From: an uncultured Planctomycetaceae bacterium | GTDB taxonomy: Bacteria > Planctomycetota > Planctomycetia > Planctomycetales > Planctomycetaceae | Length of the DNA stretch: 64,000 bases | Assembly (NCBI GenBank): GCA_963815195.1 | Contig: CAWFGE010000008.1 | Location: 160,001-224,000, forward strand | Reading direction: 5' to 3' | Shown: one piece after another, positions 20,163-28,231 of the stretch | How positions within the stretch are numbered: position 1 is the stretch's first letter | Layout of the letters: the number at the start of each line of letters is the position of its first letter | Made by a program: the position numbers and the translations under genes | Notes under the pieces: generated by a model | The model's input: only the letters and a program-made list of their open reading frames with translations | Told to the model about the DNA's origin: nothing | Database searches by the model: none

Positions 20163-20507
20163 CTACGCCGATTGCTCGGCGATTGGCTGCGGGGTGGCGG
20201 GTTTGGGCGAAGCCGGGGTCGCGGGACGCCGCTTGAGGATTCTTCGCAGCTTGGACAAGGTGCCGTCGCGGTTCCAGCGGCGATAGTAGCTGTAAACCGT
20301 GCCCCACGCCGGGAATTCCACCGGCAGCATTCGCCAGGGACAACGCACCTGGTCGCGGTAATGGATCGCGCTGACCACCTCCCGCAAGTCCGTCGCCCGA
20401 TGCCGGCCCAAGGGACTTTCCTCGGGCAATAGCGGAGCAACCTGCTCCCACTGCTCGTCGGTGAGGTCGCTGGGATAGGCCGTTCGCGGCAAAGCTGCAT
20501 CACTCAT
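20163..20507 (-). CDS. Stand-alone IS5-family transposase N-terminal domain (DUF4096-like), no catalytic DDE domain
   Basis: YPSDLTDEQW..LLP, REVVSAIHY, CPWRMLPVEFPAWGTVYSYYRRW..DG, followed by a short Pro-rich tail and a stop. Confidence 0.75.
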   Translation of the reverse strand: MSDAALPRTAYPSDLTDEQWEQVAPLLPEESPLGRHRATDLREVVSAIHYRDQVRCPWRMLPVEFPAWGTVYSYYRRWNRDGTLSKLRRILKRRPATPASPKPATPQPIAEQSA

Positions 20508-20577
20508 CGTCGGAGACCTCTCGGGGGCTTTGAGTTGGGAATCCAAATGCCAGCGTCCGTCGAGCCGGCCCGATCGA

Positions 20578-20892
20578 TTATGCGGAGGTCTTTTCGTCGG
20601 CATTCGTTTCACTGCCTCGCCGACCCGCCGGAAAATACAGCGTCCAATCGGCGAGCCAATCTGCTCCCGCCAAATGCCGGCGCTCCGAAGACGGCCGGCG
20701 ATTCGCCGGCTTTTGGGTTTGAGGTACGGGACGGGGGGTGTTCTCCTCGTCGACTTCGGGCGCGGGCGGCGAAGAGTCGTCCAACACCTCCAAAACCGCC
20801 GTGGGAGCCTGGACCGAAAGACCGCCCCCCATGAGGGATTCCTGAAAATCCCACGTCCGGTCTTCCTGAAACGAAAGGGGTGCGAGGTTCAT
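20578..20892 (-). CDS. Hypothetical protein
   Basis: Low-complexity ORF upstream of the DUF4096-like gene; start uncertain. Confidence 0.3.
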   Translation of the reverse strand: MNLAPLSFQEDRTWDFQESLMGGGLSVQAPTAVLEVLDDSSPPAPEVDEENTPRPVPQTQKPANRRPSSERRHLAGADWLADWTLYFPAGRRGSETNADEKTSA

Positions 20893-22402: not shown

Positions 22403-23461
22403 TTACGGATAAACCTTCGTGCGGCGGCGCTCGGCGAGAAGGCTGAGAGCCAAATCCAGATTGTGGCGGGCTTCGGGATAGTGCCCGACGAGTTTGAGAG
22501 CCCGGCCGAAGGCGTCGATGGCGTCTTTCCACCGCTCCATTTCGAGATAGGCGTTGCCCAGGTTGTTCCAAGCCTCGGCGTAGCCGTCGTCCAGGTTCAA
22601 TGTCTTGAGAAACGCATCCCGCGCCTCGGCGAGCCGGCCCTGCGCATAAAGCGTGTTCCCCAAGTTGAAATACAGAATCGGATTGCCCGGTGCGATGGCG
22701 ATCGCGGTTTGATAGAGTTCCGCGGCCTCTGTGAGTCGGCCGTTCATTTCCGCCAAGAGCGCTTTCTCGAAAATCCGTCCGAGGTCGGCCGGGGCGGGGG
22801 GAATCTCGAAGGTGGCGTTCGTCTCCGGCGATTCGGAAAAATCGAAATACCGCTGCCCGTTGCCGTCCAGAAGCTGGCCGCGGTGCCGAATCAACAGCCG
22901 CCCGTGCTGCTCGATCCAATTCACTTCGGACACCGACTCCCCCGGCAGCCGATGTTGGTGCTTTCCCAATTCCCTGCGAATTTGGGCGATTGTGAAATCG
23001 GTTTCCGTCAGCCGCCACAAGCGTTTGGCCGTGGACAGGGCGGCGAAATTGAAAAACTCCAGCCGATGGATGACCTCAACCGGTTTGAGCAGCCCCCAGC
23101 GAACCCATTGGCGGAGCCGGGCGCTCGGCACTTGGAGCGTTCTCGCCAAATCCAAAAGCGTTAACCGGGACACGAGCGGTCCCCCGGCATCCAGATGCCC
23201 GGCGAGGCGATAGAACTCGCGTTCGGAAATTATCTGGAGGGCCGCCGTCTTCCGCAGTTCCCAGGCTTTGAGAAGGGCGCTCGAAGAGTCGGCACAGCCC
23301 TCGTCCCCAACGATGACATAGTCCGTTTGCCGATTGGGAACAGCGGCGCTCGGGCAGCCGAGTTCCCCGGCGAACTGGCGGAACTCCTTTTGCGACATCG
23401 CCGCAAACCGCCCGATGGGGCAGATCGTTTTTCCGGAAAGCGTGATCTCGGTATCCATCAT
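22403..23461 (-). CDS. BRCT + MerR-type HTH + TPR protein
   Basis: BRCT-like LSGKTICPIGRF..QTDYVIVG..IISEREF, HTH LTLLDLARTLQVPSARLRQWVRWGLLKP, and TPRs (YFNLGN, AWNNLGN, ARHNL). Confidence 0.8.
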   Translation of the reverse strand: MMDTEITLSGKTICPIGRFAAMSQKEFRQFAGELGCPSAAVPNRQTDYVIVGDEGCADSSSALLKAWELRKTAALQIISEREFYRLAGHLDAGGPLVSRLTLLDLARTLQVPSARLRQWVRWGLLKPVEVIHRLEFFNFAALSTAKRLWRLTETDFTIAQIRRELGKHQHRLPGESVSEVNWIEQHGRLLIRHRGQLLDGNGQRYFDFSESPETNATFEIPPAPADLGRIFEKALLAEMNGRLTEAAELYQTAIAIAPGNPILYFNLGNTLYAQGRLAEARDAFLKTLNLDDGYAEAWNNLGNAYLEMERWKDAIDAFGRALKLVGHYPEARHNLDLALSLLAERRRTKVYP

Positions 23462-23483
23462 CTCGAGTCAGCACGGGGATCCA

Positions 23484-25202
23484 TCAACCGGATTTCTTTT
23501 TGGTTTTCTTGGCCGCCTTGTCTTCCGCGTCTTGTGCGGACTTGGCCATTTTGCCCGCGGCTTTCTTTTTTGTGGCCTCGGCTTCGGTCGCGGCCTTTTT
23601 GGTTTTCGTTTTGGCGGGCTTCTTCTTGGCCGCGGGTTTTTTCGCGGCGGCTTTTTTCTTGGCGGGAGCCTTCGCGGCTTCCGCGGGTGTCACAGCAACC
23701 GGAGCGGGTTCCGCCGCAACGGTCGCCGGTTGGACCTTTGGCTCGTGGAGGTTCCAGCCCCGCTTTATATTCGCTTCCACGAGTTCATTCCACAAGTGCT
23801 CGATCTGCTCCAGCGAATCGGAAACCCGAATGTCGCGGGCCAGCGGGCTTTTGCGGTTGGGGCTGAAGTCGGTGTAATGCAGCACATAACCCGGGTAGTC
23901 TTCGTTCTCGTCCTTGTTGGTCTTCCACATCACGAACTTCCGCACCATGACTTCGCCCTTGGCTTCCTTGGTGTAAACCTCGCGCTGGAGCAGTTCGCTC
24001 TGGGGCAGAGTCAACTGCTTGGCGTCCCGGTCGGCGAGCGGCACATCGACGATCGCCGTGACCTGCTCGATGCGAATGTCCTGGCGGGTCGGCGTCTTGT
24101 CTTCCCGCCGGCGGATGAACTGCGGAGAGATCACCGACACCAAAGGCATCCGGCGGACGATGTGGTATTTGTCCGAACTATCGCGGTTCCAATCCAAGAC
24201 CATGCGGTGAATCGCCCCGCCCCGCGTGGTCTCCGCCACGAGATCCAGGCAACTGATTTCGATGACCCATTCCGGGCGGACCATCTGATAGGCGACGTGG
24301 TCGGAATTGATTTCCGCGTATTCGCTTTCGACGGTGATGTCTTTGAGGTCGCTCAAAAACTCCCGCCGTTGCTCTTCGGAAAACCCGCCGCCGACCCGCG
24401 TGAGAATCTGCAACGTCTCATCGCCCCGCCGAACCGCCAACAGCAAATCGTGGAGCATCCCCTCGCGGTCATCGACGGACTCGGTAAAGCCCACGACCAC
24501 CGCATCCAACGTATGCCGGGGTTTGATCTTGAACATGCCCGCCGTTTCGCTGCGGACGACCAGGCCTTCGCCGCCCTCCTCTTCGACCCACTGCTCGAAG
24601 AGTTTTTGGATGTCCTCGAGACCCACCGCTTCGCGGGCTTCCACCGGATGAATTTTCTCTCCGGCCGAAAACAATTCGCCGATGCGCTGCCACGTCGCGG
24701 CAAAGTCTTCGTCGGCCGGCTTGTCGTCCAGCGAGATCAGATCGAACACCGCGAACTGGAGCTGCGAAAGCTCGGCTTGGGACGCGGGGTTCCGGGCGAT
24801 CGAATTGACATCATGCACCCGCGGCCGGCGGTCGTTGCGGGCGACATATAGTTCGCCTGCGATCAGGGCTTCTTTGATCTTCGCTTTCGCGAACAGCTTC
24901 TCCGCCTCGGCGAGCCAAGGCAAGCCCGCGCGGACCGTGCCGCCGGGGTTGATGCAAAACGCCTGTCCCGCCCGGTACACGAGCACCGTGAACTCGCCGT
25001 CGATCTTCCGGCTCACGTGGTACTCGGCGGGCATGATTTTTTTGGTGATGTCCTGTTTTCCTAAGGGGGACATCCGCGCGCTCAGCCGCCGGCGGTAGTC
25101 CTGCACCCTCGGCAACAGGGACACATCGGCAATGGCCATCGACGTGCCCACGCCGTAAGAGCCGAGCTTGATTTCGAGGCGCGAGGGATCGAGAAGCGTC
25201 AT
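23484..25202 (-). CDS. ATP-dependent DNA ligase with C-terminal WGR-like domain and Lys/Ala-rich tail
   Basis: Motif I SRKIDG, III IAGEL, IIIa FAVFDL, IV EGLVVR, V FKIKP, OB fold (LDAVVVGF, VGGGF, RPEWVIE) and VI PQFIRRREDK. ATG 25202 overlaps the upstream stop (ATGA). Confidence 0.9.
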   Translation of the reverse strand: MTLLDPSRLEIKLGSYGVGTSMAIADVSLLPRVQDYRRRLSARMSPLGKQDITKKIMPAEYHVSRKIDGEFTVLVYRAGQAFCINPGGTVRAGLPWLAEAEKLFAKAKIKEALIAGELYVARNDRRPRVHDVNSIARNPASQAELSQLQFAVFDLISLDDKPADEDFAATWQRIGELFSAGEKIHPVEAREAVGLEDIQKLFEQWVEEEGGEGLVVRSETAGMFKIKPRHTLDAVVVGFTESVDDREGMLHDLLLAVRRGDETLQILTRVGGGFSEEQRREFLSDLKDITVESEYAEINSDHVAYQMVRPEWVIEISCLDLVAETTRGGAIHRMVLDWNRDSSDKYHIVRRMPLVSVISPQFIRRREDKTPTRQDIRIEQVTAIVDVPLADRDAKQLTLPQSELLQREVYTKEAKGEVMVRKFVMWKTNKDENEDYPGYVLHYTDFSPNRKSPLARDIRVSDSLEQIEHLWNELVEANIKRGWNLHEPKVQPATVAAEPAPVAVTPAEAAKAPAKKKAAAKKPAAKKKPAKTKTKKAATEAEATKKKAAGKMAKSAQDAEDKAAKKTKKKSG

Positions 25203-25910
25203 GACTGGGGCTCCGTCGGGGCTTTGAGTTCCAGGTTGGAGAGGTGCAAGATCAAGCAATAGTCTTCGCCGGCGGTCCGGCCTTCCAAGAAGCCGCGGTA
25301 AGGCGAGCCGCCGCGCTGGAGGATCAGGGGCTGATTGGACTTCGGCCCCGCCCCCACGAGCATCACGCTCTGTTTCTCTTCGAGCTCCTTGGCCATCCCG
25401 TAGAGAAAGTCATAGGTGAGGCCGTTGATGTGCACGAGCTGCAGCTTGTTGACGATCACAAACCGCCGGATGGCGTCGGCTTTCTTGATGAGCACCCCGG
25501 ACCATTTCAAAGGCGACTCGCCGGCCATGTTGGGGACGGCGACCTGCTTCGGCTGGCGGGACCGTTCGGAGCCGTCGGGGTTGCGGACGATCTCCCAGCG
25601 TTCGACGCGGTGCACGATCTTTCCGTCGGGATCGATAAACACGCGGGACGTGTCCTTCAAGAACCGCCCGGTGTTTTCCAGGTCCACTTCGGGATCGGTG
25701 TCGATCAACAATTGGGAGAGGATCGCGAGGTCCTCGTGCGCTTTCATCGAGCGCATCGATGTCGCGGTTCCGCGGGGATTTGAGAACGCGGACGGTCGAG
25801 GCTTGCCGGCCTTCGTCGTCCACCCAGCGGACCTGCTGCCTGACATTGACGCTGGCCGCCACGACCACGGCATCGCGGCCTTTGCTGTTGCTGATATTGA
25901 TTTCGCCCAC
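25199..25910 (-). CDS. Divergent Ku-like protein B (apparent 1-nt insertion near 25750)
   Basis: GTG 25910 (MGEINISNSKGRD..) joins MKAHEDL..LHLSNLELK. The pattern of hydrophobic and secondary-structure elements parallels the bacterial Ku core by eye. Confidence 0.55.
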
Positions 25911-25952
25911 GGCGGTTTTCCCCTGTTGGGAGCATTCGAGAAAAGTTCGATC

Positions 25953-26003
25953 ATTAGCCGCAGGGCGGTGCCACCCTGCGGGCGGTGCCACCCTGCGGCT
26001 AAT
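25953..26003. repeat. REP-like palindrome (family B)
   Basis: ATTAGCCGCAGGG...CCCTGCGGCTAAT; related copies at 27711-27784 and around 28214/28712. Confidence 0.75.
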
Positions 26004-26007
26004 GAAA

Positions 26008-26625
26008 TTAAATCATGCCGAAGTCCATCAGGTCTTCGCTTTCCTCCGTGGTTTCTTCTTCCTCTTCGTTGAGTCCCTGCGATTCGCCCAAGCCGACGTA
26101 TTGCAGCCGGGCTTCGCTGCCGATCGCCAGAAACACATGGCCGTCCTGGCCCATCAACAGGAACGCGGCGTCGGCTTCCAAACCGCCGCGGTAGCTGAAG
26201 TCGAAGGCGAAGATCGTCCCTTTCTTCAGCTCCGCCAGGAGCGGGTCCGCGGGATCGACGGCTTCCATCATGTAGACCGACCGCAGGTTGTGATTGAGGT
26301 ACGTCTCCGCATCGACCGAGCCGGCCAGTTCGATCGGTGCATCGAACGACGAGGGCACTGGCTGGATTTCGTGGCCTTCCAGGTCGATGGGCTTGAGGGA
26401 TTTCTTTTCGCACCAAAGCCCGGTCGCCGAGCGGTAACCGAACCCGGTGCCGCCGCGGCCGATGAGCGTGCAGCCGTCGTCCGCGAGGGTGGCGAGTTCG
26501 CAAGCCCGGCCCTCTTCGTCGCGGACCTCCGTTTCCTTAAAACCGTAAAGCTTCTCGCGATCCACCTTTTGCATCTCAAACGCAAACGTGGCCTCGCCGA
26601 ATTGGAAAGTCAGTTGCCTGGGCAT
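26008..26625 (-). CDS. Divergent Ku-like protein A with acidic C-terminal tail
   Basis: LTFQFGEATFAFEM, GFGYRSATGLW, PIELAGSVDAETY..VYMME and LLAELKKG..FSYRGG..AAFLL match, in order, the Ku core segments I recall from mycobacterial Ku. Confidence 0.6.
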   Translation of the reverse strand: MPRQLTFQFGEATFAFEMQKVDREKLYGFKETEVRDEEGRACELATLADDGCTLIGRGGTGFGYRSATGLWCEKKSLKPIDLEGHEIQPVPSSFDAPIELAGSVDAETYLNHNLRSVYMMEAVDPADPLLAELKKGTIFAFDFSYRGGLEADAAFLLMGQDGHVFLAIGSEARLQYVGLGESQGLNEEEEETTEESEDLMDFGMI

Positions 26626-27127
26626 TGCGTGGTCCCGCAGGATTGGAGAAGAGCCGAAAGGGATGTGCCACCCAAATATGCGCGGGAATTTTCGACCGGG
26701 ACCGGAGTCTTCGCCGACCTCGTGAAAAATTCCCGGAACCGCGCCGCCAAACTCCGCACAGCCCGCAAAAAGGGACTTGGTCCCGCGAATCCAAATTCAA
26801 GCAGGACCCGGGGTTATCGTCGGCTGGGAAAGTTTGCCGGCGGATGCGGGGAAATCTCAAAAAAATACTCTGGGATTTCCTGATTCCGCCGGTGGAGCGC
26901 GGGGGATTTCAACAATTTATGCACAACGCGCCCACCCCGGAAAATCGACGTGAAATTCCTGAACCGTCGCGTGAGCCAATACTTAGGACGCGAACCGTGC
27001 TGTGTTTGAAAAAATCGCGCTCGGCGATCCATCCCGGGCGGTAAACTCAAGGTGGGACGGAACTGCGCATCGAAGCGGGTTTGCAAAGGAGGCGTTTTCA
27101 GCGGCGTGTGATTGATCGGCGGGAAGC

Positions 27128-27715
27128 ATGTCTCCGGATGGCGTGGCGATTTTTTTGCGAGACCACCAGGGCGAAGAGCAGCCGGTGGAGTTCACCTGGG
27201 GCACCGACGCCGCCAGCATCGAGCGGGTTTGGGACGCGGCCGTGAAAAAACTGTCGGCAAAAGACGCCGACGAACTCCGCCGCGAAGGGTATTACGCCCG
27301 GCTCGTGTCGTTGACGGCGCTGGCCTCGGAAGACATCGGCCAGCCGGACTTCATCGAGACCTGCCTCCGCCAGGTCGAGGTTCTCGTGGACCGGGGCGAC
27401 TGCACGAGCCACGCGGGCAACGAAACGGTGACGCAATCCTTCCTGGAAGCCATCCTGGCCAGCGACCGGATCCTCGTGCCGCTGCCGGCGCATGCACCGG
27501 CGTTGCCGGAGTTCGCGGCGGATTATCTGGATTGCCTCGACGCGGGCGATGTCGAGTTGCCGTTGTATTTCGTGCTGCAAGAACGCACGCCGACCCATGC
27601 GATTTATGCGGTCCAGGAATGGGAACCGCCCCGGCCGCGGTTGGGAAAGATGGCTCCCTCGCGGCAAGGTTTGGAACGCGCCCGGCATGCCCAAAGCTCG
27701 GTTGAATATCATTAG
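27128..27715 (+). CDS. Hypothetical acidic protein
   Basis: 195-aa ORF with host-like codon usage, divergent from the Ku-like operon. Confidence 0.65.
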   Translation: MSPDGVAIFLRDHQGEEQPVEFTWGTDAASIERVWDAAVKKLSAKDADELRREGYYARLVSLTALASEDIGQPDFIETCLRQVEVLVDRGDCTSHAGNETVTQSFLEAILASDRILVPLPAHAPALPEFAADYLDCLDAGDVELPLYFVLQERTPTHAIYAVQEWEPPRPRLGKMAPSRQGLERARHAQSSVEYH

Positions 27716-27859
27716 CCGCAGGGCGTTCGCCCCGGTGGCCAGATTCGCGAAGCCAGGAGCCGGGGCGAGCGCCCTGCGGCTGATGATTTCCAATTCAACC
27801 CAAGGCGCGAACCGCTACGACGGGCGCGGGACATTCTTTCCGGGCGTGTTGGGCGACTT

Positions 27860-28231
27860 ATGCCGCGATTCGTGATTTTAACGCACGATCATCCCCATTT
27901 GCATTGGGACTTGATGTGGGAAGAGCCACGCCGGGAAAAGCTGCGCAGCTTTCGATTGGAGCAGCCCCCGGCGGAGGGCATTCTCATCCGGGCCGAGGCC
28001 TTGTCCGATCATCGCGTGGCCTATTTGGATTACGAAGGTCCCGTGAGCCGGAACCGGGGCGAAGTCAAACGCTGGGACTGGGGAGACGTGGAGTCGCTCG
28101 CCGACACGAGCGAAGAAATCTCACTGCGGCTCTTGGGCCGGCGGATTGCGGGGACCGCGGTGTTGACCCAGAACCGCGAGACGGGCTGGACCTTGCGCTA
28201 CATTCCGGATTCATTAGCCGCCGGGCGCTAG
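27860..28231 (+). CDS. Stand-alone LigD 3'-phosphoesterase (PE/LigD_N) domain protein
   Basis: RFVILTH..LHWDLM, LRSFRL, DHRVAYLDYEGPV..RGEVKRWDWG match the LigD PE signature (H, HxD, DH..Y..EG, WD.G). Confidence 0.85.
   Translation: MPRFVILTHDHPHLHWDLMWEEPRREKLRSFRLEQPPAEGILIRAEALSDHRVAYLDYEGPVSRNRGEVKRWDWGDVESLADTSEEISLRLLGRRIAGTAVLTQNRETGWTLRYIPDSLAAGR

Follow-up and report, generated by a model that had tools for sequence, protein, structure and literature searches.

A Predicted Heterodimeric Ku and a Dedicated Ligase Form a Candidate DNA End-Joining Module in an Uncultured Planctomycetaceae Bacterium

Introduction

In canonical bacterial non-homologous end joining (NHEJ) the Ku homodimer (PF02735; PDB 9VNQ, 9I91, and 8V53) works together with LigD. 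Ku can also be composed of two different subunits. In Sinorhizobium meliloti two ku genes, those of Ku3 and Ku4, which act with LigD4, lie in one operon and a heterodimer was proposed from genetics (PMC6379672), and thus a bacterial Ku heterodimer has a precedent. In eukaryotes Ku70/Ku80 (PDB 1JEY) and the paralogues INTS13/INTS14 are heterodimers of two diverged Ku cores. Here we describe a locus in a stretch of 64,000 nucleotides (the window) from an uncultured Planctomycetaceae bacterium (assembly GCA_963815195.1, contig CAWFGE010000008.1, positions 160,001 to 224,000). Two genes without annotation, whose products are called A and B, are followed here by a gene for an ATP-dependent DNA ligase, and the three together are called the trio (coordinates in Table 1). 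We propose, at a probability of roughly 60%, that A, B, and the ligase are a cryptic heterodimeric Ku-ligase module for DNA end joining, in which a ring loads on double-strand ends and brings its own ligase, whereas variable accessory proteins clean the ends.

The trio resembles Ku-LigD NHEJ in its predicted barrel, bridge, and pillar core, in the operon with an ATP-dependent ligase, and in a K/A/P-rich tail, but by the defining tests it is a member of neither PF02735 nor LigD. In contrast to canonical bacterial Ku, A and B are invisible to profiles, make up a pair of subunits with no sequence relationship in place of a single subunit, and have no sling, and A carries an acidic tail that ends in DF. 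The ligase differs from LigD in that it represents a family of its own, with an extra C-terminal domain and without fused polymerase (POL) or phosphoesterase (PE) domains. The locus shares with Ku3-Ku4 the two different genes in one operon and the proposed heterodimer. However, Ku3 and Ku4 are recognizable Ku orthologues working with LigD, whereas A and B are profile-invisible, mutually unrecognizable, and tied to a dedicated ligase. With Ku70/Ku80 the pair has the two diverged Ku cores in common, which for A:B is a predicted heterodimer only, but A and B are only 205 and 236 amino acids long and have no vWA, C-terminal arm, SAP, or DNA-PK-binding domain. SPOC domains (PHF3, FPA, SPOCD1, and RBM15) contain the same distorted barrel (Z 7-11) but align over ~100-110 residues, whereas A and B carry a bridge insertion of 80-110 residues, and this insertion accounts for the larger part of the interface in the predicted dimer.

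What is new is therefore a profile-invisible, sling-less pair whose members diverged from each other past sequence recognition and which is bound to its own ligase family. No description of this A-B-ligase family was found in the literature searched, a search with supplements outside its scope, with few subscription papers, and for a two-letter protein name that is unsearchable alone. Two surveys of prokaryotic Ku and NHEJ (10.1101/2023.09.30.560322, based on BLAST, and PMC11936186) start from known Ku proteins. They would score carriers of the trio as NHEJ-negative.

Results and Discussion

Predicted Folds of A and B

The folds of both proteins were taken from predicted models. A was modelled with AlphaFold2 from 80 sequences (mean predicted local distance difference test, pLDDT, 75.4). 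For B the intact homologue P0132 was modelled in the same way from 92 sequences (pLDDT 72.1), in place of the window copy with its broken reading frame. The Ku-core β-barrel is present in the models of A and of P0132. In A, two N-terminal strands are followed by a loosely ordered insertion of 80 residues, a helix-strand-helix element and three strands.

The original prediction had called both proteins Ku-like, and at the level of predicted structure the Foldseek search agrees, as Ku is the top match for A and for B. For A all 7 of the 7 matches at E<=0.001 are Ku of B. subtilis or M. tuberculosis (best 3.4e-5, template modelling score 0.44), and Ku-containing entries account for 38/38 among the matches listed. 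VIA comparison gave Z 11.2 and 11.1 to Ku of B. subtilis and M. tuberculosis, respectively (161 residues, root-mean-square deviation 7.0), where A aligns to residues 2-174 of the latter. Eukaryotic Ku, SPOC, and INTS13/14 followed at Z 7-9.8, with SPOC domains reaching at most Z 9.4 over ~100 residues, and the first unrelated fold appeared at Z 4.3. P0132 as representative of B yielded 54 matches at E<=0.001 (best 4.7e-6), again with 38/38 Ku entries among the matches listed, and VIA placed M. tuberculosis Ku first, at Z 11.6 (111 residues, root-mean-square deviation 2.8). The top Foldseek rows of P0132 are large eukaryotic Ku chains, which does not show descent from them.

The structural match starts at residue 1-2 of A and B and the alignments end near Ku residue 174-188; an N-terminal vWA domain and a C-terminal arm are absent from both. 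In M. tuberculosis Ku the sling comprises residues 167-227 (PMC12784962), and A and B both end where it begins. The bridge is the element that separates Ku from SPOC, and the bridge insertion is found in the models of both A and B.

Predicted A:B Complex

The complex was predicted with ESMFold2 using A of the window and P0132, a non-cognate B with 82% identity in the compared part. The A:B runs scored 0.76, 0.75, and 0.76, compared to 0.00 for the best control. The score mark is reached by 116/157 solved and 2/215 mismatched pairs, counts that are approximate here, with our own alignments supplied. Between runs at least 86% of the contacts (314-325) agree, with a partner pLDDT of 76 or more. 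In the interface the bridges interlock (A 19-87 with B 21-46 and 83-120), the pillars touch (A 106-119 with B 142-160), and a third pairing is asymmetric (A 174-178 with B 210-221). This corresponds in the model to the bridge-and-pillar pattern of mycobacterial Ku minus the sling. A Ku70/Ku80-like heterodimer, as suggested by the original prediction, is thus what the confident A:B model with its bridge-to-bridge contacts points to.

A and B could instead be two separate homodimeric Ku proteins with different jobs, the heterodimer being a modelling echo of their shared fold. The complex tool itself cautions that relatives of a true partner may also pass, only A:B was modelled, and B is found without a detected A in 3/68 loci. 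However, A and B are only 16% identical in profile alignment and nevertheless form 314-325 contacts including the asymmetric pairing, and according to the tool distant cousins passed in 0/84 cases. In addition, the chains are modelled less confidently alone (pLDDT 75 for A and 72 for B) than in the complex (78-79 and 77-78), in a comparison across different programs, and their genes are nearly always adjacent. Two independent homodimers are therefore very unlikely in our view.

Several residues of A and B are conserved. In the bridge of A, K20, R23, K25, K30, and K74 are Lys/Arg in 89-100% of the sequences, and in the bridge of B the basic residues R41, K44, R81, and R88 are conserved in 71-88%. 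The terminal DF motif of A is found at the same end position in 75/80 sequences, behind a tail with a net charge of -11.

Sequence Searches

Searches retrieved 609 homologues for A and 2577 for B. Against Pfam and NCBIfam neither protein gave a match at E<=1, so the expectation that standard profiles may miss them was borne out. PHROG had no match for A or B and PADLOC none for A, B, or the ligase, profile searches of the PDB sequences with A and B gave nothing significant, and the ESM Atlas search returned no usable match. A and B had also been said to differ strongly from each other, and in hhalign they are indeed connected with a probability of only 1.8% at 16% identity. As profile comparison gives no sequence-level link to Ku, the Ku homology of A and B rests on structure.

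No A-B fusion was detected among 8000 longer candidates, which is weak evidence, and a likewise weak search for a longer, fused form of A found none. An open reading frame (ORF) of 2181 amino acids containing A in genome G333 was rejected as a fusion, as it reads a MoxR/VWA cluster in antisense and continues from there into A.

Genomic Linkage and Distribution

The linkage of A, B, and ligase, which the original prediction had named as a point to check, was observed in other genomes. When loci were searched via A, 11 other genomes yielded 13 loci, and the three genes were found in this order in 13/13. The search via B gave 80 metagenome loci; of the 68 that leave at least 350 bp of room upstream of B, 65 have A there, and of the 57 that leave at least 450 bp downstream of B, 51 have the ligase there. 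The exceptions examined are mostly A-B pairs without ligase. Across 47 complete loci the pairwise identities of A, B, and ligase are correlated (Spearman 0.82-0.84), which shows inheritance as a unit but not physical contact.

The window's own genome (G000) has 8.87 Mb and is 94.6% complete; close homologues of the window proteins are labelled Planctomycetota. In the phylum A occurs in 11/401 and B in 12/401 genomes, in 1/60 near relatives and in 0/3 genomes of the same genus. B falls into 603 clusters at 50% identity. Members of the A and B families are labelled Planctomycetota, Myxococcota, or Alistipes, whereby most of the 30 B representatives looked up have no organism label. A scan of the contigs with a single protein query detected one locus only. 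Searches of 72,556 plasmids, 50,697 phages, and the IMG/VR contigs gave no match for B.

This patchy distribution (11/401 phylum genomes, 0/3 in the genus) could mean that the module serves mobile elements and, in the manner of the Ku encoded by phages, protects and circularizes element ends on entry or after excision. The synteny with relatives stops at 27859, and one genome (G162) holds three copies of the trio. Furthermore, in the loci L022-L026 (G162, G289, and G400) the ligase frame is much longer (~1050-1100 amino acids), in L026 through a C-terminal AAA ATPase fusion, and their flanks resemble recombinase-type mobile DNA. Against this stand the negative plasmid, phage, and IMG/VR searches, the missing PHROG matches for A and B, and the unremarkable GC content of the window. 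Outside of the L022-L026 clade no recurrent mobile gene adjoins the trio. Mobile elements as the main users of the module are therefore quite unlikely.

Canonical Ku is encoded in 56/401 phylum genomes, to which the trio adds 11-12 genomes. In the 12 trio carriers canonical Ku was found in none, and the PF02735 search of G000 was empty. LigD polymerase (TIGR02778) was likewise detected in 0/12 carrier genomes, which are 74-96% complete. Tandem pairs of canonical ku genes, an arrangement resembling that of Ku3-Ku4, were observed at six places in the phylum (G214:C223, G276:C2, G079:C461, G054:C252, G172:C68, and G399:C94).

The Ligase and the Basic Tails

The nucleotidyltransferase motifs of the ligase, K66-x-D68-G69-E70, G116-E117, F153-D154, E212-G213, K225-x-K227, and R364/R366/D368/K369, are retained by at least 95% of 52 sequences. 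Because of this conservation the ligase is, judged from its sequence, very likely active. The closest solved relatives are DNA ligase I enzymes. With the LigD ligase model TIGR02779 it scores 66.6 bits, below the cut-off of 227.75, and a weak match to RNA_ligase (E 1.7e-5) is also below cut-off.

The C-terminal domain of ~90 amino acids looks WGR-like by eye, but four tests against PF05406 or solved WGR domains gave no match, and this identity was not adopted. In P0308, a B homologue of 381 amino acids, B is fused directly to this conserved domain without the catalytic domains, which hints that the domain belongs with the ring. A tail of at least 45 amino acids is present in 28/176 B homologues, and 19 of those 28 tails consist to at least 50% of K/A/P. 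According to PMC6379672 some canonical Ku proteins are marked by lysine-rich tails. Another ATP-dependent ligase, which does contain a true WGR domain (PF05406, E 2e-17), is encoded elsewhere in the window's genome at G000:C22:371814-373148 and is 57% identical to the second ligase of locus L019, which follows the first one there.

Near the trio, a fusion of AEP-TOTE and HAD_SAK_2 is encoded in four other loci (L057:10820-11908, L140:2824-3924, L049:2419-3657, and L016:10358-11256), and this fusion could supply fill-in and 3'-phosphate removal. G000 has only fragmented AEP-TOTE/HAD homologues (C18:16320-17031 and C13:710939-711446), unlinked to the trio. In L016, L017, and L019 the trio abuts a cluster of SWIM, HEAT or DUF5691, MoxR, and VWA genes, and a reverse-transcriptase-like ORF lies at the far cluster end in L019; the MoxR, VWA, and reverse transcriptase names are our own presumption.

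Such repair- or conflict-type neighbors (4 loci with the AEP-TOTE + HAD_SAK_2 fusion and 3-4 with SWIM/MoxR/VWA clusters) suggest a different function, in which the A:B ring would assist the ligase, as its clamp or cofactor, when nicks are sealed or when DNA or RNA damaged by nucleases in biological conflicts is repaired, and would not serve end joining. The lack of LigD polymerase in all 12 carriers and the weak RNA_ligase match would fit with this. However, the ligase has the OB domain of a DNA ligase and its nearest solved relatives are of the DNA ligase I type, PADLOC matches none of the three proteins, and a closed Ku-type ring can load only at DNA ends. We consider a role as nick or conflict clamp to be conceivable but doubtful, and prefer end joining.

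Proposed Mechanism

In the proposed end-joining module the Ku cores of A and B would assemble as a heterodimer via interlocking bridge arms and touching pillar helices, as predicted by the models. From Ku biology we infer that the A:B ring threads onto a double-strand end via the conserved basic bridge residues and thereby protects and aligns the ends. More speculatively, the acidic tail of A with its terminal DF may dock on the ligase, where the conserved basic domain at the C-terminus would be a plausible site. This docking is proposed because A and B are devoid of the sling and of the tail which recruit LigD in Ku. A K/A/P-rich tail, either on B or on the ligase, could add non-specific grip on DNA. 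The ligase would then seal compatible ends, and dirty ends would be cleaned by the accessories at hand, i.e., the stand-alone phosphoesterase in this window and the AEP-HAD fusion in the four other loci. Cleaning is assigned to accessories since no LigD polymerase is present in any of the 12 carriers. The module would be an accessory unit of patchy occurrence that takes the place of canonical Ku-LigD.

A number of observations speak against this proposal. The missing LigD polymerase is one of them. At the sequence level PF02735 is missing from the families listed for A homologues (0/80) and from the 25 commonest of the 46 families for B homologues (0/104). In hhalign A and B were connected to 10 canonical Ku proteins of the same phylum with a probability of 0.1-1.2%, the reference being 10 of 20 fetched canonical-Ku regions picked by pattern. 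For this reason the parallels to Ku-core motifs, on which the original prediction was built, were not confirmed (probability <=1.2%), although the quoted peptides do exist in the translations. The sling is missing, as residues 178-205 of A are modelled without helix at pLDDT <50 and B ends directly after the barrel. The bridge of P0132 is poorly modelled (pLDDT <50 at 39-47 and 70-102). The A:B model is a heterodimer of the proteins alone, with a non-cognate B and with neither homodimer control nor DNA, and its pass may partly be due to likeness to solved Ku dimers. Among the B loci with enough room six have no ligase and three no A. Mutual exclusion with canonical Ku was seen in the sample (0/11) but is not significant, as at a base rate of 56/401 the hand-estimated chance of 0/11 is ~0.2.

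Two further points speak against the proposal. The core of A is strongly acidic, with a median net charge of -12 compared to +0.5 for canonical Ku cores, and contrasts with the Ku pore, which is basic (PMC12784962). In VIA, P0132 scores nearly the same with eukaryotic Ku (11.2), the SPOC domain of PHF3 (11.0), and B. subtilis Ku (11.0). Together with the acidic tail of A, this would fit an A:B pair that retains the Ku/SPOC barrel, has given up binding to DNA, and acts as protein scaffold or ligase regulator in a SPOC-like manner. However, A and B both have the long insertion after the second strand, i.e., at the position of the Ku bridge, and the basic bridge residues of A are conserved to 89-100% despite the acidic background. 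A DNA-blind scaffold therefore seems very improbable, and a DNA-binding ring remains our preferred reading.

Going beyond the end-joining module itself, A:B might represent an ancient obligate heterodimeric Ku lineage apart from PF02735, with a eukaryote-like division of labor into one DNA-facing and one ligase-docking subunit. It would then be the closest prokaryotic counterpart of Ku70/Ku80 and provide polymerase-free joining in many bacteria scored as NHEJ-negative, including gut Alistipes. We regard this extended version as unlikely, and no tree can place A and B relative to eukaryotic Ku because of the missing sequence signal.

If the trio joins ends, bacterial NHEJ has a wider range than is currently recognized. 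If the proposal is true, it would also provide a heterodimeric Ku in minimal and tractable form, with which one could ask why the eukaryotic protein has two different subunits, and a three-gene polymerase-free joining kit could serve bacterial genome editing. As Alistipes is a culturable carrier genus, the module is directly testable.

Frame Break in B

In the window B does not form a single reading frame. From the GTG at 25910 it runs into a stop, and the frame changes between the first ~54 codons and the ~182 that follow. In the closest homologues (80-85% identity in the C-terminal part) both halves share one frame in 8/8, although the C-terminus of P0127, one of these, is different and longer. 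In run X1 a contig from short reads (280 bp at depth 4.1) agrees with the window at 0 mismatches but is missing exactly one base, 25748. Because of this contig and the in-frame homologues the extra base is most likely an assembly error, a reading that rests on one low-depth contig, possibly from the source sample. A programmed frameshift and a pseudogene were both considered and are disfavored by the same two observations. Other breaks among the loci were found in B of L016 and in the ligase of L021.

Locus Organization and Neighboring Genes

The features of the locus are listed in Table 1. The co-directional run of A, B, ligase, and BRCT-MerR-TPR gene described in the original prediction is present on the minus strand at the given positions, with the restriction that 25199-25910 is not an open frame. 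The ATG of the ligase overlaps the TGA of B as ATGA, so the coupling of the two genes stands, and the BRCT-MerR-TPR gene starts 22 bp past the ligase stop in the same direction.

Table 1. Features of the trio locus and its neighbors in the window.
Feature	Position	Strand	Description
Subunit A	26008..26625	-	205 aa (amino acids); predicted Ku-core fold in residues 1-~175 (barrel, bridge ~21-100, pillar helix), followed by a disordered acidic tail with near-invariant terminal DF; no sling
Subunit B	25199..25910	-	~236 aa; predicted Ku-core fold with longer bridge (~21-133); window copy broken by extra base 25748; fold from homologue P0132
ATP-dependent DNA ligase	23484..25202	-	572 aa; adenylation and OB domains, motifs intact; no POL or PE; Pfam DNA_ligase_A_C
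Ligase C-terminal domain	23745..24011	-	Conserved, ~90 aa, several conserved basic residues; WGR-like by eye, unconfirmed
Ligase basic tail	23487..23738	-	Lys/Ala/Pro-rich, 84 aa, net +18, 70% K/A/P
BRCT-MerR HTH-TPR gene	22403..23461	-	Pfam BRCT, MerR_1, and TPR matches; accessory, in part of the family only
Stand-alone LigD 3'-phosphoesterase (LigD_N)	27860..28231	+	Pfam match; genus-resident neighbor, not a conserved part

The BRCT-MerR-TPR gene had been counted as part of the system. Its co-directional position holds here, but it is linked to the trio in only 4/94 other loci (L056, L057, L060, and L140, with L056 and L057 possibly from one organism), many of the 94 being too short to reveal it. 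A distant paralogue (26%) of its BRCT-MerR part is encoded at G000:C15:585773-586384, and similar paralogues away from the trio are present in G401 and G422.

As had been noted, ~1.2 kb separate the stand-alone LigD phosphoesterase from the beginning of A; it is encoded on the opposite strand. A phosphoesterase (PF13298) is found in 4/12 carriers and adjoins the trio only in this window, compared to 0/80 metagenome loci, and in 3/3 trio-less genomes of the same genus it sits in the same place beside the same downstream gene, with synteny ending at 27859. It was therefore rejected as core part. Between A and the phosphoesterase lies an unrelated ORF of 195 amino acids (27128-27715, plus strand), which was not mentioned in the original prediction. 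It has no family match, is single copy in G000, and has no homologue in related loci.

A promoter/terminator scan gave no signal exceeding shuffled controls. A small ORF (20163-20612, minus strand) 1.8 kb downstream of the operon resembles a fragment of an IS5-type transposase. Finally, short repeated GC-rich elements were observed at 25950-26000, in the spacer between A and B, and at 27640-27790, downstream of the 195-amino-acid ORF. Contigs of two runs join these two regions with each other, which suggests a dispersed REP-like (repetitive extragenic palindrome) repeat.

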